51,802 nt of DNA. Origin: Escherichia phage vB_EcoS_NBD2. The stretch lies in the sequence record NC_031050.1; one strand, 5' to 3'. Positions 2,956-51,201 of the stretch are shown piece after piece; the first letter of the stretch is position 1; each line of letters opens with the position of its first letter. The notes under the pieces are model-generated. The model worked only from the letters and a program-made list of their open reading frames with translations. It was not told the origin of the DNA and did no database searches. Both the position numbers and the translations under genes were made by a program.

Positions 2956-3333
2956 ATGAAACGCATTAAAGTTAAATGCCTGGCAGTTGACCGTTACATT
3001 TCCGAGTTTTACACCCCTGGCAAGTGGTACACCCTGGAAGTTATTGAAAAGCTGGATATTGCCCAGCAGACCCGCGAGATTCCAACCGATCGCGATGGTT
3101 GCTCACTTCGTGTTAGCCGTGAGCGCGGCGACAATTACCGCTATCGTGTTGCGGGCTATGAAGGCACGCTGTTTGACTCGAAGCCGTGGCGCTTCCGCAA
3201 GAAGAATCATTTTTGCGTTGATATCGACTACAGCAAATGCGCTCGCTCAATCCGTCGCCAGGCTCGCAACGTAGCCAAAGAGCTTTATTCGTGCGGCAAT
3301 CTGGAGAAGATCGCGCGCAGCTATGGAAAATAG
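2956..3333 (+). CDS. hypothetical protein
   Basis: 125-aa ORF, RBS aagga. Confidence 0.55.
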   Translation: MKRIKVKCLAVDRYISEFYTPGKWYTLEVIEKLDIAQQTREIPTDRDGCSLRVSRERGDNYRYRVAGYEGTLFDSKPWRFRKKNHFCVDIDYSKCARSIRRQARNVAKELYSCGNLEKIARSYGK

Positions 3334-36027: not shown

Positions 36028-36963
36028 TCACTCCGCAGAGTCAATAAGATCCTGCGCGTTAAATAGTTGCCGCCGCATCCCTGTTTTGAAGTCCGATCCG
36101 TTCGGCACGATAACTTTCAACTCCCGATCATCTGCCATGTAAAGCGTTTGCAGGTCATCAGCAAGGCACGCAACGCGCAATTCCCGCTCTCCCTTGTAAC
36201 GATACGCCACGATCTCAAGGTTGCTTGCATCAGTACAAACCCAGACTTCCTGATTGGTTGCGAAGTTCACCCGCTCGCCATCAGCCCAATCATTCACCAG
36301 GTAGATCGCGCCCTCACTCTCTCCGACTTTTATCACCGCTCCCCGCGTGTAATCCTTTGCAAGAAACGATCGGCTTCCATCCTCGAAGGCAAACATTATG
36401 TTGCACATTTCATCATCAAGGCCGTCATCATGCACCATATGGCACGGCAACGCGTGGATAAACTCATCAGACCCATCAGGACGCGATTTAACTCCTACGC
36501 TGTACGATTCGCCGTATAAACCTTCAAAGACCGTTAGAGGCGTGCTTGAGCGCAATTCTGTGCGGCTCATTACTTCAATGCAGGCCTCGTGATCAATCTG
36601 TTTCCCAAACGTGTAGCCGTTGTCTCTGGTTGCCCGCTTATTTGCCTTAACGCGATACTCTTGCGGAACCTTACCCAGAAAGCGCCCCAGGATGTTAATC
36701 ACTTCACTGTACGGCTCGCCAGTTAAGCGCATCATCCAGCCAATGCCCTTATCCGCTCCGCAACTGTTACAGTAAGCGCCGCCGTCGCCAGGCTCTTCAA
36801 GTTTATCAGTCCAGCGGAATCGGTCTTTACCGCCGCATGACGGGCAACTCTGGTGTTTTTTGTTGAACACGATTGATGGCACGCCGCAAACAGACTGCAA
36901 AGCCTCACGCCAAAGGCCTTTCATGTACGGCAATACTTCTTCTTTCTGAAACATTTCATTCAT
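36028..36963 (-). CDS. DNA primase (zinc-ribbon plus Toprim-like)
   Basis: N-terminal CPSCGGKDRF...CNSCG zinc ribbon followed by an acidic-residue-rich domain. Confidence 0.6.
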   Translation of the reverse strand: MNEMFQKEEVLPYMKGLWREALQSVCGVPSIVFNKKHQSCPSCGGKDRFRWTDKLEEPGDGGAYCNSCGADKGIGWMMRLTGEPYSEVINILGRFLGKVPQEYRVKANKRATRDNGYTFGKQIDHEACIEVMSRTELRSSTPLTVFEGLYGESYSVGVKSRPDGSDEFIHALPCHMVHDDGLDDEMCNIMFAFEDGSRSFLAKDYTRGAVIKVGESEGAIYLVNDWADGERVNFATNQEVWVCTDASNLEIVAYRYKGERELRVACLADDLQTLYMADDRELKVIVPNGSDFKTGMRRQLFNAQDLIDSAE

Positions 36964-37585: not shown

Positions 37586-39661
37586 ATGAAAATTAAGAGC
37601 ATCAAGAAACAAATTGCAGAGTTGGGCGAAGCCAAAATAAAGGAAATTCAAGAGGCCTACACCTTCAACGGCGTTGTGCCTTATGCGTATCAATGCGTGA
37701 TGTTTGACGAGATCGGGAAGCGGATCGGAAAGTATCAGCACCCATTCTTTGTTAAAGCCTCCGTATCGGCTGGCAAAACGATTGGCTTCGCGATGGTCTG
37801 CAAGCGCCTTAGCCAGATGATCAGTGATAAATTCCCAAAGGGGTTGCCCGCGATGATTCTTGCGCGCCAGGGCGACATTGTGGCGCAGGATAGCGAAGAG
37901 ATCACAAACTTCGGCGTTCCAAATAGCGTTTACTGCGCAGGCCTAAACACAAAATCGGCATATTTCCCCATTATCGTTGGTTCAGAGGGAACCGTTGCGA
38001 ATGGTCTGTTTAAGGCGCTTGGCGATTTCGTTCCATTCGTGCTGGGCATTGATGAATGCCACCAGGTTGATTGGGAAGATCTTGCAGATTCGATCGACAA
38101 GAAAGAAAGCTATGAAGAAATGAGCCGCCCGAAGGATGAGGCATACATGATTAACGGCGAAGTATGTGAGCCAGGGATCAAGATTTCAAGCCTGCTTGAG
38201 CAGATGAATACCGTTGCACCAGGCGCAGGCCGCGCGCAGTACACCGTAATCATTCGCACCCTGCAAGAGCGCTGCAAGCGCGTGCATGGTAAAGAGCTTC
38301 GCATCTTCGGAATGACGGGATCGGAGTTCAGGGGAACAACCCCCATTCTGGTTGAGAACATGAAACTGCCTGGCTTCTGGCGTGAGCAGGTAACGAACAT
38401 CGACACGAATTATCTTATCGAATTCGGTTCAGTTGTTCCCACTGTGTTTGGCGGCACGGAAGGCCTGGGCTATGACTTGAGCGAGTTTAAGGCATCCGGT
38501 CAGGATGGTACGGCAGACTTTAGCGCAGCCGAAATGAAGAAGATGGAAAAGAAAATCCACGATAACGCCAGCATGACAAAGCGGATCATTGAAGCGGTTG
38601 TGAAGGAGGCTCAAAACAGAAACGGAGTGCTGATCACTTGCTCTGGGCAGCGCCACTGCAAAGAGGCCGCAAGCTATCTTCCACCGGATGCAACTTACGC
38701 CATCATCACGGAAAAGACCGGAACAAAGCAGCGCCAGCAGATTTTAGAGGATGCCAACAAGGGCAAGATAAAGTACATTTTCCAGGTTGTGGCGCTAACA
38801 ACTGGCGTGAACGTTCCATTCTGGGATTTCTCTGTCATACTCCGCAAGATCGGAAGCCTCACCCTTCTGATTCAGTTGCTGGGGCGCGGGATGCGATTGT
38901 TGAAGCCGTGGCAGAAGTTGCCGCCTTATAGCATGGTTAAGGAAGATCACCTTGTTTGGGATTTCGCCGGAACGATGGACGAATTAGGGCAGCTTTACTT
39001 TGATCCGATTCTGGAGGAGGCGCAGTATCAACGCCGATTCGACTCGAAGAAGGAGCCGAAGAAGTGCCCGATTTGCGGAACGGAAAACAGTTTCTTTGCC
39101 CGTCGCTGCATCAAGAAGGATGGGAACGGAAACCGCTGTGAGCACTTCTGGAAGTCTCGCGAGTGTGAAGATCAGATCGATAACCGAACAGGCGAAGTGC
39201 TTGTGAAGGGCTGCGGCACGCAAAATGACATTGTAGCGCGAATCTGTAGGCATTGTGATGTTAGCTTGAAAGATCCTAACGAGAATCTAACAGGCAAGGC
39301 GTACACTAAAAACGATTGGTGCGAAGTGCTTGATTTCAGTGTTGGTCTAACCAGAAATCAAACGGGCATCATCTACACTTACAGTCTGCGTGACAATATG
39401 GGCGTTGAGTTCACGGCCTATGAGAAGTTTTTCCCAGAGTCACAGGCGCAGATTTGCGGCACACTCTGGAAGAAGAAAGGCGTTGAGCCTCACGTTGCAG
39501 ACAGTAGGATCTCAAAGTTAATGGGGGCTTACCGAAGCGCACGGCTAATCATGCAAAACGTGCATCACATCATGAAGCCAGTACGCGTGACACATCGCAA
39601 GAATGGCAAGGGCGAGGATATCATTTCCCGCAAAGACTTTGGTATTGAGGTAAACGTATGA
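37586..39661 (+). CDS. SF2 DExH-box DNA helicase with C-terminal zinc ribbons
   Basis: Walker A SVSAGKT, Walker B/DECH in GIDECHQV, C-terminal CxxC pairs. Confidence 0.75.
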   Translation: MKIKSIKKQIAELGEAKIKEIQEAYTFNGVVPYAYQCVMFDEIGKRIGKYQHPFFVKASVSAGKTIGFAMVCKRLSQMISDKFPKGLPAMILARQGDIVAQDSEEITNFGVPNSVYCAGLNTKSAYFPIIVGSEGTVANGLFKALGDFVPFVLGIDECHQVDWEDLADSIDKKESYEEMSRPKDEAYMINGEVCEPGIKISSLLEQMNTVAPGAGRAQYTVIIRTLQERCKRVHGKELRIFGMTGSEFRGTTPILVENMKLPGFWREQVTNIDTNYLIEFGSVVPTVFGGTEGLGYDLSEFKASGQDGTADFSAAEMKKMEKKIHDNASMTKRIIEAVVKEAQNRNGVLITCSGQRHCKEAASYLPPDATYAIITEKTGTKQRQQILEDANKGKIKYIFQVVALTTGVNVPFWDFSVILRKIGSLTLLIQLLGRGMRLLKPWQKLPPYSMVKEDHLVWDFAGTMDELGQLYFDPILEEAQYQRRFDSKKEPKKCPICGTENSFFARRCIKKDGNGNRCEHFWKSRECEDQIDNRTGEVLVKGCGTQNDIVARICRHCDVSLKDPNENLTGKAYTKNDWCEVLDFSVGLTRNQTGIIYTYSLRDNMGVEFTAYEKFFPESQAQICGTLWKKKGVEPHVADSRISKLMGAYRSARLIMQNVHHIMKPVRVTHRKNGKGEDIISRKDFGIEVNV

Positions 39662-40077
39662 TCACCGATAAAGGCGAATATCTTGAGTATTACCAGGCTA
39701 ACCCGCTGGACACGTGGAAAGAGGACAAACACCAGGTTGATTGCGTGGCATGGCTGCGCTATCACTACCCGAACCTTTTATTCTGGCACACAGTCAACGA
39801 AGGGAAAAAGCATATCAATTCCGCCCTTCGTGATGAGCAGGCGGGGCTAAAAAAGGGCGTGAGCGACTTCGTAATCCTGATTGGTCATCACGATCGCAAG
39901 TACGCATTTGCAGCGATTGAGTTGAAGAGAACCAACAAGAGCGGCAAGGCCAAAGCCTCACCAGTTAGCAAAGAGCAGAAAGCTTTCTTGCTTGACGTTC
40001 GCGAGCGCGGAGGATTCGCGGCGGTTGCATACGGTCTGGATCAGTTTAAATTAGCGATCGAAGATATGTTGAAATAG
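39658..40077 (+). CDS. VRR-NUC domain nuclease
   Basis: 139 aa with D...E.K arrangement (DFVILIG...AIELKR) typical of VRR-NUC. Confidence 0.55.
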   Translation: MITDKGEYLEYYQANPLDTWKEDKHQVDCVAWLRYHYPNLLFWHTVNEGKKHINSALRDEQAGLKKGVSDFVILIGHHDRKYAFAAIELKRTNKSGKAKASPVSKEQKAFLLDVRERGGFAAVAYGLDQFKLAIEDMLK

Positions 40078-40147: not shown

Positions 40148-40876
40148 ATGAAAGACGTTGCAGACAAAGACACTCATGACGCATTCGTAACCTTCGAACA
40201 GGTTGAGCGTGAGAACTTCATCACAAACGCGCTCGTTCCAGGTTGCGGGCATTATTCGGCGGTCAAGCCGGACACGTTCTATCAGGTTACGGGCAACCGT
40301 TATGCCGGAAGCAAGACGCCGGATGTTGTGCGCGATTTGTGGGCTACCGATCGCGAGCTTATCGGCTGGATGGAAAAGCGTTACGGCAAGTATGACATTG
40401 ACGCGGCAGCGAGCGAAAACAACGCAGTGTGTGAAAAGTTCTACGACGAAAAGCGCAACTGTTTGAAAATCTGGTGGGGCAAAGACAAGCACATCTGGCT
40501 CAATCCTCCGTACTCACATCCCGATCCTTTCGTTAAAAAGGCGATTGAGCAGATGGAGCACGGCAACCAGATTGATATGCTTCTTCCTGGCGACAACTCA
40601 ACGGCATGGTTTGCCGAAGCGCGAGCAAACGCGGCGGAGGTCATCTGGATTGAGGCAGAGATCACAGAGATTGACCAGCAGGAATACTGCCGAACCGGAC
40701 GCCTGGCCTTTATCTCTGGGCTAACCGGAAAACCAGTTGACGGCAATAACAAAGGCAGCGTGATTTTCATCATGCGCGAACTGAAAGAAGGCGAGACACA
40801 ACAAACGCATTACGTTTCCGTAAGCGAGATTTGCCCAGGTGTTAGCCGTAAAAAACCACGCAAGCGGAGTGTTTAA
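40148..40876 (+). CDS. dam: DNA N6-adenine methyltransferase (phage Dam-type)
   Basis: Catalytic NPPY motif in IWLNPPYSHPDPF. Confidence 0.7.
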   Translation: MKDVADKDTHDAFVTFEQVERENFITNALVPGCGHYSAVKPDTFYQVTGNRYAGSKTPDVVRDLWATDRELIGWMEKRYGKYDIDAAASENNAVCEKFYDEKRNCLKIWWGKDKHIWLNPPYSHPDPFVKKAIEQMEHGNQIDMLLPGDNSTAWFAEARANAAEVIWIEAEITEIDQQEYCRTGRLAFISGLTGKPVDGNNKGSVIFIMRELKEGETQQTHYVSVSEICPGVSRKKPRKRSV

Positions 40877-44319: not shown

Positions 44320-44735
44320 AAAGGCTTTACAAATTAATCAAGTGGATTTTCATCGGGTTAAGCGCAATTGTCATTTGTGGTTGTTCGGCAACGTCTGCCC
44401 TGACTGGTTTAATCGGCAGCAAGCCAGAAATCAGCGCGCAGGCTGGCGCGGAAAACACGAAACAGACGGTTGGGATCAATGGCAAGGTTGACCAATCCAG
44501 CGAGGTTGAGACAACCATCAAAGATTCAACCGTTGGCAAGGTTGACACGTCTAACGGAAAGAAAACCAGCGCCTCAAGCATAACGGCTGACACCATCAAG
44601 GCCGATAAGATTGAGATCAGGAATCAGGAAGGCGGCGATGTTGCCGGATGGATTGCGCTATCTGGCGTTGTTGGTCTGTTTATTTTGCTGGGCGCGTCTG
44701 CGCTACGGAAACGACGATATGAGAAAGGAGCCTAA
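44316..44735 (+). CDS. unimolecular spanin (T1 gp11-like)
   Basis: N-terminal signal with Cys-containing lipobox-like region (IVICGC) and a single C-terminal TM helix. Confidence 0.55.
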
Positions 44736-44752
44736 CGGCTCCTTTTTTTTAT
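44728..44752 (+). terminator. intrinsic terminator after lysis cassette (GGAGCC-taac-GGCTCC plus T9)
   Basis: Overlaps spanin stop codon. Confidence 0.7.
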
Positions 44753-44946
44753 TTGAATCTCTGCACGAGCAAGATCAATTCCCCATCCTGGTTGCATAAC
44801 GTGTGCTCCATCTTCTTACCCGCCCGCATTGAGGTATTGATCAGAGACAGGAGCGCGGCGTTTAACTGATCTTCAGTCAACCCATGCTCCGCGCTGTACC
44901 GGATCACCTCGTTAATTAGCCCCTGCCTTTCCGAATAATTCCTCAT
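44749..44946 (-). CDS. hypothetical protein
   Basis: 65-aa ORF, last gene of - strand operon starting at 46859. Confidence 0.35.
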   Translation of the reverse strand: MRNYSERQGLINEVIRYSAEHGLTEDQLNAALLSLINTSMRAGKKMEHTLCNQDGELILLVQRFK

Positions 44947-45307
44947 CGCTCAATTTCTCAATATTCATCATTTCCCAGGTGTATCGGTCTTTGTCTCCGC
45001 CATAGCACCTGAAATCAAATTCAAAGGGGCGTTTCTGCGCTCCCTTTGCCCCATACCAGCGATTTTCTCCCCATAAGTAACCCAACCCCATCATCCTTGC
45101 GCAAAACTCCTTAGATGCGCTTGAGGCGAAGAATCTGGGCGTTACTCCAGCGGCGCGGGCTAATCGCTCACACTCACGATGTTTGAAGATGAAAACCGCC
45201 AAATGCTGACGGTTGAATTTTTCGTAAGACTCACAAAAGCGGTAAATGTCAAGAAGAAACATATCATCATCCCAGGAGGCGAGGGTTAACGTAAACTTTA
45301 TCACCAA
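44912..45307 (-). CDS. hypothetical protein
   Basis: 131-aa ORF overlapping 3-prime end of the P-loop gene; alternative start at 45262 just after the upstream stop. Confidence 0.4.
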   Translation of the reverse strand: MVIKFTLTLASWDDDMFLLDIYRFCESYEKFNRQHLAVFIFKHRECERLARAAGVTPRFFASSASKEFCARMMGLGYLWGENRWYGAKGAQKRPFEFDFRCYGGDKDRYTWEMMNIEKLSDEELFGKAGAN

Positions 45308-46859
45308 TCACGCAGCAATAGCCCTTTTCCTCCAGTTGAGGGAGTAGGTGATCTTTGATGCGCGTCATTGTTCCGGCCTGGCCTTCGAACGGCTTCACCT
45401 TTCGCGCCGCCTCATACAGAGAACGGACGTTAACAACCCCTTTAGGCGATCCGCTCTTTGCTCCACGGCTCATTATGTCTAAAAGCTTGTTCATTTCCGC
45501 GTTATCCCCAGCGTGCCCAGCGGCGTTTGCGGAAGATAAATACGTTTTACTCAACTCGTGAAACATAATGATCGCCTCTTGCATCGTGTCTAACTCGATC
45601 TCACGAGACTTTGCCGCCGATCCCTTCTCGCTAAACCAGTTGCGCACAGTATGCAGAACGGATGCGATGCGGATTACCTGCTTGTCAAACTTACCCAGGG
45701 CACCGCGTAACATGGTGTGGGAATACTTGCCGCCGTCTGCAAGGTGAGGCTCCATTTCCTGACGCGCTTTGTTCAGGTAGCGCATACCGGACGGGCTAAC
45801 CGTCAACTTCACATCTACTTCGCTCATGATCGCGTGAACCAGCTTGAAGTAATCGGCCTTTAGGCCTCCATCGATCGGCTCGTAAGTCGATTCGCCTTGC
45901 TCGTTGACGAACTGGCGACGGCCTAAGAAAGACTCCTCACGCACCAACAAGAAACGCTCAGAAACACCGATACCGCGCGCGCCTGCATTCATGATGGCGT
46001 TGATTGTCTCATCTTGGGCGATAACAGAAATGCAGCCCAGCGCAACGAATGACATATTGTTATCCGCGTTAGCACGAGCGATCGACACGTTGCCCGCATC
46101 CCACGCTTTAAGCACCAATTCGCTGTTTGTTTTCTTCGAGCCGTCGCCGTAGGTCATGCCCAGAAGGGAGTTAACGCTTGTTGCTTCGTCCGAGATCACG
46201 GCGAAGTTGCCTTGACGGTTGTTAATGCGCGCCAGGCCTTCTGGTGTGGTATCAGATACCGGAAACACGATATCACAAAGGCGCTCAAGCTTTTCTTCTA
46301 ACTCTTCTTTCTCTTCGAACAGCGCCGCCATATCTGACGGTGATTTCTCCTGCTTCATTTCCTTCGCCAGCGCCGAAAGCTTCGCCATGATCTTCTTTCG
46401 ATCACGCTTGCGGATCTCGTTGAGTCGCTCAGTCTCCGAAATCATTGGAGCAAGGGAGAGTGAGTTGATAGCAGACTTCCCCGTCGATGGAGGCTGACTA
46501 GTGACAACGTAAAGCGCCGTTGGTTGTTGCGTGCCGTGATACTCAACCGTGAAGCGCCCAAGCATCGCAGCGGAAACGCAGCCCAGGAAATGAATATAGG
46601 CCGATGACTCTGGGAACTGCACAGATCGCGCAGCGTTACGCGAAAGCTTGCCCACAACGTCAACATCATTGCCCAGAGAGATCACGGGGTATTTCTCGTT
46701 CCCGTTGTCGATTTCGGTCGGCTCGTTCCAGAACGATTGAGAATGACGATAGCCATTCGCATTGATCGCAACGCGCAGCGGAGTTAGGCCGCTCGTGTTG
46801 GCGATTTCAATGATCTGTTGTGGTGTAAGCGTGTTTGTGTTGAAACCTAAATCAAACAT
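45267..46859 (-). CDS. P-loop NTPase protein of unknown function
   Basis: 530 aa; Walker A-like QPPSTGKS and Walker B-like FAVISDE; RBS aaaggag; motif promoter upstream. Confidence 0.6.
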   Translation of the reverse strand: MFDLGFNTNTLTPQQIIEIANTSGLTPLRVAINANGYRHSQSFWNEPTEIDNGNEKYPVISLGNDVDVVGKLSRNAARSVQFPESSAYIHFLGCVSAAMLGRFTVEYHGTQQPTALYVVTSQPPSTGKSAINSLSLAPMISETERLNEIRKRDRKKIMAKLSALAKEMKQEKSPSDMAALFEEKEELEEKLERLCDIVFPVSDTTPEGLARINNRQGNFAVISDEATSVNSLLGMTYGDGSKKTNSELVLKAWDAGNVSIARANADNNMSFVALGCISVIAQDETINAIMNAGARGIGVSERFLLVREESFLGRRQFVNEQGESTYEPIDGGLKADYFKLVHAIMSEVDVKLTVSPSGMRYLNKARQEMEPHLADGGKYSHTMLRGALGKFDKQVIRIASVLHTVRNWFSEKGSAAKSREIELDTMQEAIIMFHELSKTYLSSANAAGHAGDNAEMNKLLDIMSRGAKSGSPKGVVNVRSLYEAARKVKPFEGQAGTMTRIKDHLLPQLEEKGYCCVIGDKVYVNPRLLG

Positions 46860-46879
46860 TAAAAACTCCTTTGTTGGTT

Positions 46880-46930
46880 CCGGCTAATGTACCGGAACCA
46901 TGATACAGACGTTGTGCAAAAAGTGCTATT
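46880..46930 (-). promoter_or_regulatory. motif-containing promoter region for - strand P-loop operon
   Basis: Reverse complement of 46911-46930 is AATAGCACtttTTGCACAAC; TATCAT-like hexamer follows on - strand. Confidence 0.4.
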
Positions 46931-46932
46931 GG

Positions 46933-47349
46933 TTAGAGATATTTCGCTTCAAAGGTTGTACCGTCTGCGATCGAGAAGCCAACCTCTTCGCGGTACAGAC
47001 TCCAGCGGCAACCATCGTTATCGAAGATGTAACCAGCAACCCCGCCCAGCGCGCGCCCCGTTTCCACCTGGTAACGTTTCCCAACCGTGAAAGACTTTTT
47101 CACGGGGTTTTTGTGATCCAGCGCCATGCACTTGAGGGTTTTCGTTTTCAACTCAACGAAGCGGGCGAACACAGAGCCATCACCATTGGCACCGAAGATT
47201 TCACCGCTAACGCCAACCGAAAGGAAAACTTTGCTCTTTCCGGTTCCGGTTGAAATGTTGCCCTCATCGTCAATGCGCGCCTTGATCAGAGTATTGGCGG
47301 CGAAAGATTTGGTTGATGTTTCGGTTACTTTCAGTTTGATAGTTTTCAT
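46933..47349 (-). CDS. hypothetical protein
   Basis: ORF 46933..47436 trimmed to ATG at 47349 (MKTIKLKV); upstream part overlaps small membrane peptide gene. Confidence 0.45.
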   Translation of the reverse strand: MKTIKLKVTETSTKSFAANTLIKARIDDEGNISTGTGKSKVFLSVGVSGEIFGANGDGSVFARFVELKTKTLKCMALDHKNPVKKSFTVGKRYQVETGRALGGVAGYIFDNDGCRWSLYREEVGFSIADGTTFEAKYL

Positions 47350-47359
47350 GATGAGATCC

Positions 47360-47452
47360 TTATACGATCGCGAAGTAAAGAGTTGTGATGAATCCAAAAG
47401 CCAGCCCAGCCAGAGCAAAGAGAACAGCGCCTCCAACCATTAAATCTGCCAT
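47360..47452 (-). CDS. small hydrophobic peptide (30 aa)
   Basis: Translation MADLMVGGAVLFALAGLAFGFITTLYFAIV; motif promoter upstream; below ORF-track cutoff. Confidence 0.35.
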   Translation of the reverse strand: MADLMVGGAVLFALAGLAFGFITTLYFAIV

Positions 47453-47490
47453 TTGAACCACCTGTTTTGTTGTTTCGTTTCGATGTAGTG

Positions 47491-47534
47491 ATAATAACAA
47501 AACCCGCCGAAGCTGGTTTAACAAAAAGTGCTAT
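47491..47534 (-). promoter_or_regulatory. motif promoter on - strand (22-23 nt, TATTAT-like)
   Basis: Reverse complement of 47515-47534 is AATAGCACtttTTGTTAAAC. Confidence 0.45.
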
Positions 47535-48220
47535 TTTGCGTTAGCCTGGAAAACGGCGCGTGCAAAGCCGCGAGGCGTTAGCGATCGGAGTTGCTTAGTC
47601 TTTGCAGACTTTCCGCCGAGGAACTTCCATCCCCAAAAGAAGTGAATCCCTTCATCATCCGGCAATTCCAGCTTTTTCGGTTGTTCGAAGCCCTCGCCAC
47701 ACCAGATACAAGTTTTCTTCGTGTAGCCATCGCGCAGCGGCATTTTCGGATGCCATGAGCCTTCATCGGCGTTGACGTAATACCCAAAATCGCGAGGGTG
47801 AAAATAGAAGTTTGGCTTGCCCATCATATCTGGATTTGAAAGCTTACCGACCGGATTCTCAATCATCCACGGCACGCCGAACGATTCGCCCAGAGACTTA
47901 ACGATCTTTGCATTCTCCAGGGCATATGCTAGTTCATCCTCTTCGCGGGCATGTTTCGCGCCTGAGTGAGCAAACAGCGTGCAATCTGGGAAGCCGAAGA
48001 TTATCCCAGGTTCAGGAATGCCCAGCAACCCGCATTTAATCTGGAAATCCTTGTCAATCCACATGTTGACGTAATGCAAATTTTCGTGCTGCATCTTCAC
48101 AGCGTACTCGCCATGATTGCCGGAATCCGCGTTGAAGCAGTAGACATGATAACCAGCAGTCGCCCAGGGCAAACCCATGATGCCTGAGCCATCAAACAGT
48201 GACCAAACAACCTTTTTCAT
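47531..48220 (-). CDS. putative DNA methyltransferase-like protein (cytosine-5 MTase-like motifs)
   Basis: Motif I-like LFDGSG, Cys-containing FPDC where PCQ is expected, ENP where ENV is expected; only 229 aa. Confidence 0.35.
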   Translation of the reverse strand: MKKVVWSLFDGSGIMGLPWATAGYHVYCFNADSGNHGEYAVKMQHENLHYVNMWIDKDFQIKCGLLGIPEPGIIFGFPDCTLFAHSGAKHAREEDELAYALENAKIVKSLGESFGVPWMIENPVGKLSNPDMMGKPNFYFHPRDFGYYVNADEGSWHPKMPLRDGYTKKTCIWCGEGFEQPKKLELPDDEGIHFFWGWKFLGGKSAKTKQLRSLTPRGFARAVFQANAK

Positions 48221-48465
48221 TCTGCAACCTCTTCAAATTTAGCAACGCCCAGAATCACCCATCCTGACGGGTAAGCCGTTACAGCCTGCCAACTGCTCGA
48301 CCCGTTCCGGCGCTTCTCGTCACCAATCACGATGGCATCGGCTCCAGCGCGTTCGGCCTCGTAAACCTTCCCCTTCGTGAAGTGGGGCTTTTGCTTCTTA
48401 TCGGTTGGCGACACCGCGCCAGTGCATTTGAGTTTCATACTTCGCCTTTTAAAACGGGATTTCAT
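48217..48465 (-). CDS. hypothetical protein
   Basis: 82-aa ORF in compact - strand operon. Confidence 0.4.
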   Translation of the reverse strand: MKSRFKRRSMKLKCTGAVSPTDKKQKPHFTKGKVYEAERAGADAIVIGDEKRRNGSSSWQAVTAYPSGWVILGVAKFEEVAE

Positions 48466-51156: not shown

Positions 51157-51201
51157 ATAGTAACCCATCTGCGCTGATCGGTTTTAGCAAAAAGTGCTAT
51201 T
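51157..51201 (-). promoter_or_regulatory. motif promoter on - strand for the right-end early operon
   Basis: Reverse complement of 51181-51201 is AATAGCACtttTTGCTAAAAC. Confidence 0.45.

Follow-up and report, generated by a model that had tools for sequence, protein, structure and literature searches.

The question raised by this locus is what kind of ATPase is encoded next to the lysis cassette of Escherichia phage vB_EcoS_NBD2, whose genome (NC_031050.1, 51,802 nucleotides (nt)) was analysed in full and is called the window below. The gene (45267..46859, minus strand, ATG start) encodes 530 amino acids (aa) and is followed by two small open reading frames (ORFs), ORF2 and ORF3. In a first-pass annotation made from the DNA letters, its product had been described as a P-loop NTPase of unknown role with no landmark beyond Walker A and B, perhaps a second replication-associated ATPase or else an accessory or counter-defence factor. 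We identify it as a DUF3987-family, MCM-like AAA+ helicase of superfamily 6 (SF6) and a core gene of T1-like phages. Probably it is the replicative (fork) helicase of the phage, acting with the phage primase, the phage single-stranded DNA-binding protein (SSB) and host DNA polymerase III (Pol III).

The window is the genome of a T1-like phage. In the 3-kb region studied, DNA identity was 96.5% with Klebsiella phage vB_KM5a1_KLB19 and 94% with vB_KaeD_HazelMika (Drexlerviridae, Vilniusvirus). The 530-aa protein itself is 99.8% identical to a deposited one.

Family, fold and motifs of the 530-aa protein

For family assignment, the hidden Markov model search that had been proposed along with the first-pass annotation was run. 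The protein matched Pfam DUF3987 (PF13148) with 136.2 bits (gathering cut-off 27; E 2.2e-39), aa 83-430 covering 346 of the 364 profile positions. PHROG 2373, 'DNA helicase', was matched with E 2e-251. This match to a catalogued family removes the novelty that had been attached to the protein. The statement that it offers no other landmark has to be given up as well, as it is a clear DUF3987 member with an MCM-like AAA+ core and a winged-helix fold. The gene is an ordinary core gene that databases already list, not a new system: its family is present in Pfam and PHROGs and has been treated in published work, and one member has been characterised biochemically.

For fold prediction, an AlphaFold2 model was built from 30 homologues (predicted local distance difference test (pLDDT) 88.6; predicted template modelling score 0.86). 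About 100 residues at the N-terminus are all-helical in the model. The order from there is β1, the P-loop, a very long helical hairpin (aa 128-193), β2, a helix, β3 with Walker B, two short strands (aa 257-260 and 269-272), β4, a helix, β5, a helical lid and a winged helix. The winged helix constitutes a C-terminal domain of approximately aa 452-530 (45270..45506; all positions within the gene refer to the minus strand). The helical hairpin after the Walker A helix (46281-46478) comprises about 65 residues, is charged and coiled-coil-like, and attracted most of the spurious AUGMIN matches. We know of no counterpart of it in MCMs.

Conservation was scored in 30 homologues with identities down to 36%. 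Both Walker motifs reported in the first-pass annotation are present and near-invariant. Seven of the eight Walker A residues (QPPSTGKS, aa 122-129, 46473..46496) are invariant, namely Q122, P123, P124, S125, G127, K128 and S129, and the fifth position is T, S or A. Walker B (VISDE, aa 221-225, 46185..46199) ends with the invariant E225. Before the sensor-1 strand, a two-strand hairpin (aa 257-272, 46044..46091) with an invariant R262 was delimited by DSSP analysis of the model and by conservation. By its place in the model, it may be taken for the pre-sensor-1 β-hairpin, the DNA-contacting element of MCM and SF3 motors, with R262 as the likely pore residue. The sensor-1 region after β4 (VIAQDE) has conserved Q282, D283 and E284; Arg replaces Q282 in one homologue. 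Just before β5, the S-E-R of a SERF motif (aa 300-302, 45951..45962) is invariant. Its position and general knowledge of MCMs suggest that R302 is an arginine finger like that of the MCM SRF motif. R385 in the lid, likewise invariant, is a candidate sensor-2 residue. As judged from the alignment, every residue expected in an active AAA+ site appears to be invariant across the homologues.

For classification, profiles and fold features of several helicase groups were compared. An AAA+ core with a pre-sensor-1 β-hairpin and an SRF-type arginine finger, by which SF6 (MCM-type) motors are recognised, was read from the model and the alignment. MCM family proper (PF00493) gave no match at E ≤ 0.1, and the N-terminal OB-fold/zinc domain of that family is missing. 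The protein therefore appears, from its modelled fold, to be an MCM-type motor outside the MCM family proper. Superfamily 3 (SF3; D5, P4 alpha, VirE), which had been suggested in the first pass, was rejected, as neither a Pox_D5/VirE profile nor SF3 as best structural match was obtained. Superfamily 4 (DnaB, T7 gp4) was rejected as well, since a RecA-fold core with a DnaB_C or gp4 profile was not found. No meaningful match came from sequence searches of the PDB, whether the query was the protein or a 30-sequence profile (best E 0.35-0.39, to a coiled coil or a short segment). In NCBIfam, the helicase, ORF2, ORF3 and the phage primase were all without a match.

A probable role at the replication fork

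The first-pass annotation had counted the replication helicase as accounted for elsewhere in the genome. This is doubtful, since the other helicase is a RadD/YejH-like protein of superfamily 2 (SF2). It has 691 aa (37586-39661, plus strand), and its best NCBIfam match, RadD/YejH, was obtained with E 1e-51, far below the equivalog cut-off. Its C-terminal part carries cysteine-pair motifs (CPICG, CRHC), and a small endonuclease-like ORF comes after it (39658-40077, plus strand). Both together look like a fork-repair or processing unit, not like a replicative helicase. The primase (36028-36963, minus strand, 311 aa) has a T7-type zinc ribbon and covers positions 10-318 of the 667-position PHROG 510 profile, and by this coverage it seems to be a primase without a helicase half. 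A Walker A scan of all ORFs of at least 80 aa revealed no other helicase-type P-loop protein. Because the other helicase is an SF2 enzyme, the primase seems to have no helicase domain and the scan yielded nothing further, the DUF3987 protein is the only candidate for a ring helicase. A DNA polymerase is not annotated in the near-identical HazelMika genome, and T1 and TLS are without one according to the TLS paper (PMC11447400).

The helicase gene was detected in 920 phage records, in 898 of them at full length, with protein identities of 56% in T1 and 71% in TLS. Its counts per genus parallel those of the primase, and the gene is near-universal in Drexlerviridae. This distribution bears on the accessory or counter-defence role that had been considered, in which the ATPase and two small partners would neutralise a host defence and be dispensable on naive hosts. 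The gene does close a block of small genes, most of them uncharacterised and one coding for a DNA methyltransferase, and ORF2 and ORF3 are lineage-specific. Accessory genes are typically patchy, however, whereas this one is full length in about 900 records from all Drexlerviridae lineages with its catalytic residues invariant, and its family, fold and primase linkage are clearly those of a replicative helicase. A literature search returned no relevant escape mutants or defence triggers mapping to the helicase gene in Drexlerviridae. Nothing in the data points to counter-defence, which we regard as highly improbable.

For more distant relatives, 1.8 billion cluster representatives were searched with phmmer, giving 2,434 relatives at E ≤ 0.001. 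In longer ones, the module follows a DnaG-type zinc ribbon, PriCT_2, a BT4734-like AEP domain or a DnaB N-terminal (primase-binding) domain. The viral structural neighbours are DUF3987 proteins, many of them fused to Prim-Pol or TOPRIM primases. Kazlauskas et al. described the DUF3987 proteins of phages as divergent SF6 helicases with a winged helix-turn-helix at the C-terminus, predicted to be replicative and often fused to or encoded beside AEP or DnaG primases; among the members is dns of phage N4, a protein essential for replication (PMC4889955). For AgaPH of Seonamhaeicola, a PriCT-DUF3987 protein, oligomers, 5'→3' helicase activity dependent on Walker A/B and binding to its primase-polymerase have been demonstrated (PMC11724360).

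Gene linkage was found in Klebsiella phage KlebP_265. Here, the helicase (37% identity) adjoins orthologues of the primase (30%) and the SF2 helicase (41%), and the cluster continues with a VRR nuclease and exonuclease VIII. This neighbourhood ties helicase, primase and SF2 helicase to one process. The earlier suggestion of a replication-associated P-loop ATPase is supported.

For the mechanism, the following steps are proposed. The DUF3987 protein would assemble as a ring and hydrolyse ATP at inter-subunit sites, to which Walker A and B, the sensor-1 region VIAQDE, the trans arginine finger R302 (SERF) and sensor-2 R385 would contribute. The pre-sensor-1 hairpin with R262 would pull DNA through the central channel and in this way unwind the replication fork. 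The helicase would cooperate with the zinc-ribbon primase, encoded by a gene of its own, with phage SSB and with host Pol III. During loading, contact with DNA or a partner may be made through the C-terminal winged helix.

Several points weigh against a fork helicase of this kind. In papers on T1-like phages, 'the' helicase is usually the SF2 protein (PMC11447400; BASEL preprint). The distance of the DUF3987 gene from the primase/SSB/recombination cluster is about 8 kb in Drexlerviridae, and a block of small genes, a cytosine methyltransferase gene among them, ends with it. D224 of Walker B is replaced by Ala in 6 of the 30 homologues (SAE for SDE), with E225 kept. The literature searched contained no experiments with DUF3987 proteins of T1-like phages. 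The N-terminal OB/zinc domain of MCMs is absent. MCMs translocate 3'→5', opposite to the direction reported for AgaPH, so that either polarity is conceivable for the phage protein. The need of T1 for host elongation genes was reportedly examined by Bourque and Christensen in 1980. If T1 does need host DnaB, the DUF3987 protein cannot be the sole fork helicase.

Some of these points would also suit an auxiliary helicase serving recombination-dependent replication, fork restart or concatemer processing, with the SF2 protein or host DnaB as the main helicase. The gene is separated from the primase/SSB/Erf cluster, annotators take the SF2 protein as the helicase, and T1-like phages have an Erf and exonuclease recombination system. 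On the other side, the best family match of the SF2 protein, though far below the cut-off, is the repair helicase RadD, so the SF2 enzyme is itself the better candidate for an auxiliary role. The primase association holds across the DUF3987 family, whose N4 member is essential for replication (PMC4889955). An auxiliary role is thus considered quite unlikely, and a replicative helicase is the preferred reading.

Slightly new here is the case made for the DUF3987 gene, instead of the SF2 gene, as the one that likely encodes the fork helicase in T1-like phages. So is the observation that a winged-helix protein and a small overlapping gene accompany the helicase, the latter without annotation in the T1 and TLS records examined. 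For annotation, this means a correction: the 'helicase' of T1-like phages is an SF2 protein of repair type, and the likely fork helicase is often labelled 'hypothetical'. Phages of the T1 type occur in abundance, serve in therapy and in screens for defence systems, and have a bad name as contaminants of laboratories. A probable replicative helicase with two conserved small partners provides concrete experimental targets.

The three-gene unit, its leader and its small partners

The three-gene arrangement noted in the first pass was confirmed: minus-strand ORFs of 530, 116 and 65 aa are closely packed between one copy of an intergenic repeat and a bidirectional terminator. The helicase gene has a Shine-Dalgarno sequence, AAGGAG (46866..46871, minus strand), found by direct reading of the sequence 7 nt upstream of its ATG. 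The terminator is a hairpin (44721..44748, both strands) common to the lysis cassette on the plus strand and the helicase block on the minus strand, and it folds on either strand (z -4.6 and -3.7). The block does adjoin the lysis cassette terminator, because the plus-strand holin, endolysin and spanin genes end convergently at this hairpin. The description as a three-gene operon was right in that the genes form a tight unit headed by the ATPase gene; the unit is a minimum, however, and belongs to a longer leftward block that runs upstream to about 51.2 kb. No intrinsic terminator was seen between the upstream gene and the helicase gene, nor between the upstream repeat copies and the helicase gene. 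Since there are further repeats upstream and no terminator, the three genes are the promoter-distal end of the leftward block from about 51.2 kb. The unit may have an internal promoter of its own.

Two DNA methyltransferase genes were recorded in the phage. One encodes a Dam-family adenine methylase (40148-40876, plus strand). The other (47531-48220, minus strand; phrog_757), two genes upstream of the helicase gene, encodes a C-5 cytosine methylase by the HazelMika annotation.

For the motif that had been read as a promoter upstream of the helicase gene, copies were counted in the window and in shuffled sequences. The motif is a genuine over-represented repeat, AATAGCACTTTTTG, with 8 exact copies and 25 copies at ≤3 mismatches (7.2 ± 2.8 expected; none of 100 shuffles reached 25). 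Copies on the plus strand are found, for example, at 3329, 5000, 6325, 7179, 8215, 37504 and 41104, and on the minus strand at 51201, 49937, 49336, 47535 and 46930. The copy upstream of the helicase gene, AATAGCACTTTTTGCACAAC (46911..46930, minus strand), is one of the intergenic repeat copies of Drexlerviridae and contains the core at 46917-46930. Good copies mostly have the orientation of the local genes, and two are antisense (16043-16030 and 43563-43550). Both antisense copies are located inside plus-strand gene blocks and precede a strong GGAGCC...GGCTCC terminator hairpin by about 25 nt or less. Very short antisense transcripts might arise from them, or they might do no more than share bidirectional terminators.

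A -10-like hexamer was found exactly 22 nt past the TTGNNA part in 16 of 23 repeat copies. These comprise 11 TAnnnT hexamers scored by script and five CATAAT or AATAAT hexamers read by eye in the same output. Several of the 11 script-scored hexamers have the extended -10 form, with TGn in front. Repeat and hexamer are often separated by a variable hairpin, and some of these resemble a terminator hairpin with a T-run merging into the -10 hexamer. On the letters of the window, the fixed 22-nt spacing argues for a candidate promoter module without a canonical -35. A scan with the sigma-70 consensus gave fewer sites than in shuffled sequences and none upstream of the helicase gene; repeat-linked -10 elements were missed by it because the canonical -35 is absent. 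In TLS, the same 21-nt repeat (21 copies, consensus aaATAGCACnnnTTGnTAAAA) is located about 76 nt upstream of start codons, is shared with T1 and Rtp, and was proposed to be a stoperator, an enhancer site or an UP element, a choice left open by the authors (PMC11447400). A literal literature search for the repeat letters found no phage paper, although the repeat is described in the TLS paper (PMC11447400).

The repeat copy upstream of the helicase gene is followed by a leader element (46875..46905, minus strand), in which a -10-like TATCAT (46905-46900) precedes a 10-bp hairpin (46900-46875; z -3.4). The hairpin loop carries a second -10-like hexamer, TACATT (46891-46886), 22 nt past TTGCAC. 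For comparison, the leader in the window (46860-46935, minus strand) was set beside those of T1 (L003, 2670-2757), TLS (L004, 3915-4006) and two further records (L001, 37038-37121; L002, 8328-8412). The layout is kept: repeat, -10-like hexamer 18 nt past ATAGCA, hairpin of 8-10 bp, Shine-Dalgarno sequence. The loop hexamer is TACATT, TATCAT or TATAAT across the leaders. In the window, LF82-10, T1 and TLS, the stems are unlike in sequence yet complementary, which is covariation. For the hairpin, a 5' stem-loop of the RNA, an operator and a structural element of the DNA are all conceivable.

ORF2 (44912..45262, minus strand; phrog_2794) is a Drexlerviridae-specific 116-aa winged-helix protein. 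Its longest form has 131 aa from a TTG (44912-45307). The start is most probably the ATG at 45262, 5 nt past the helicase stop codon, which is preferred because it is the annotated start in relatives and because the PHROG alignment begins there. The family is confined to T1-like phages (113 clusters), and the predicted structure (pLDDT 91.8) is a winged helix with a short helical tail. The label 'YdbL', widespread on ORF2 homologues, was rejected: it has no Pfam or NCBIfam support, and the predicted fold is a winged helix.

ORF3 (44749..44946, minus strand; phrog_9539) encodes a conserved small protein of 65 aa. A stretch of 35 nt is shared with ORF2, relative to which ORF3 is in the +1 frame. 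Matches were obtained by tblastn in 339 phage records, and homologues are present and unannotated in T1 (MN153797, 4641-4844) and TLS (NC_009540, 5900-6097). In the window phage, T1 and TLS, the ATG of ORF3 sits within the GAT-GAR codons of the invariant SDEELF motif of ORF2. A frameshift fusion of ORF2 and ORF3 was considered and set aside; because of its +1 frame and its own conserved ATG, ORF3 is treated as an overlapping gene in its own right. Downstream of the KlebP_265 helicase there is a small ORF, homologous to neither.

A winged-helix protein encoded directly downstream of a helicase with a C-terminal winged helix brings up a role as initiator only. The protein, in the manner of SaPI Rep or the P4 alpha protein, would recognise the phage origin and melt it through its winged helix and AAA+ ring, possibly with ORF2, and host DnaB or the SF2 protein would do the unwinding at the fork; that the phage relies on a host polymerase speaks for this as well. 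When 44600-48300 was scanned for iterons or an array resembling an origin, just short chance pairs, the promoter repeat and the terminator came up, so that no iterons or repeat arrays stand in or near the helicase gene, and none were found in TLS (PMC11447400). Moreover, a pre-sensor-1 hairpin with an invariant Arg and the fusions to primases or a DnaB N-terminal domain suit a translocating fork helicase, and the initiator and fork roles are not exclusive. An initiator without a fork role is judged unlikely.

By position alone, our guess is that ORF2 and ORF3 are lineage-specific companions in loading, origin choice or targeting, or regulation of the helicase. The three genes might even be a Drexlerviridae-specific initiation module, in which ORF2 or ORF3 would load the ring at the T1 origin or target it there, or would autoregulate the unit via the conserved leader hairpin with its enclosed -10 hexamer. 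We hold this extension to be doubtful. If true, it would be the first description of a T1-type replication start with an MCM-like helicase of a bacterial virus and host Pol III.

Comparison with known helicase systems

The closest characterised systems are those of the DUF3987 family. With AgaPH, N4 dns and the SF6 protein of Mycobacterium phage Corndog, the 530-aa protein has in common the profile match, Walker A and B, the AAA+ core, the C-terminal winged helix and, as seen in its relatives, the association with a primase. Among the DUF3987 proteins compared, AgaPH alone is a demonstrated ATP-dependent oligomeric helicase. Unlike in the other DUF3987 systems, the 530-aa protein stands alone, without a PriCT, AEP or DnaG domain. 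Its primase gene is located about 8 kb away, and it has a helical N-terminus of about 100 residues and the helical hairpin of aa 128-193 as features of its own.

With MCM (PF00493), it shares the order of Walker A, Walker B, pre-sensor-1 hairpin, sensor 1, SRF-type finger and helical lid, and the winged helix at the C-terminus. It differs from MCM in having no N-terminal OB/zinc domain and, in the model, no obvious helix-2 insert hairpin, and by the 5'→3' polarity reported for a family member, opposite to that of MCM. Cch (DUF927) of staphylococcal SCCmec and the SaPI5 primase-helicase are likewise AAA+ helicases of mobile elements that go with a primase. They belong to other Pfam families, and the structural similarity to them is far below that to MCM.

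Within Drexlerviridae, the orthologues, from which the gene of the window shows no difference of note, are T1 QEG04390.1, TLS gp71 ('yfiJ: DNA helicase'), HazelMika gp46 ('putative helicase') and the KLB19 protein ('hypothetical protein'). They are 56-99.8% identical to the protein of the window, occupy the same position convergent with the lysis cassette and are followed by the same ORF2 and ORF3.

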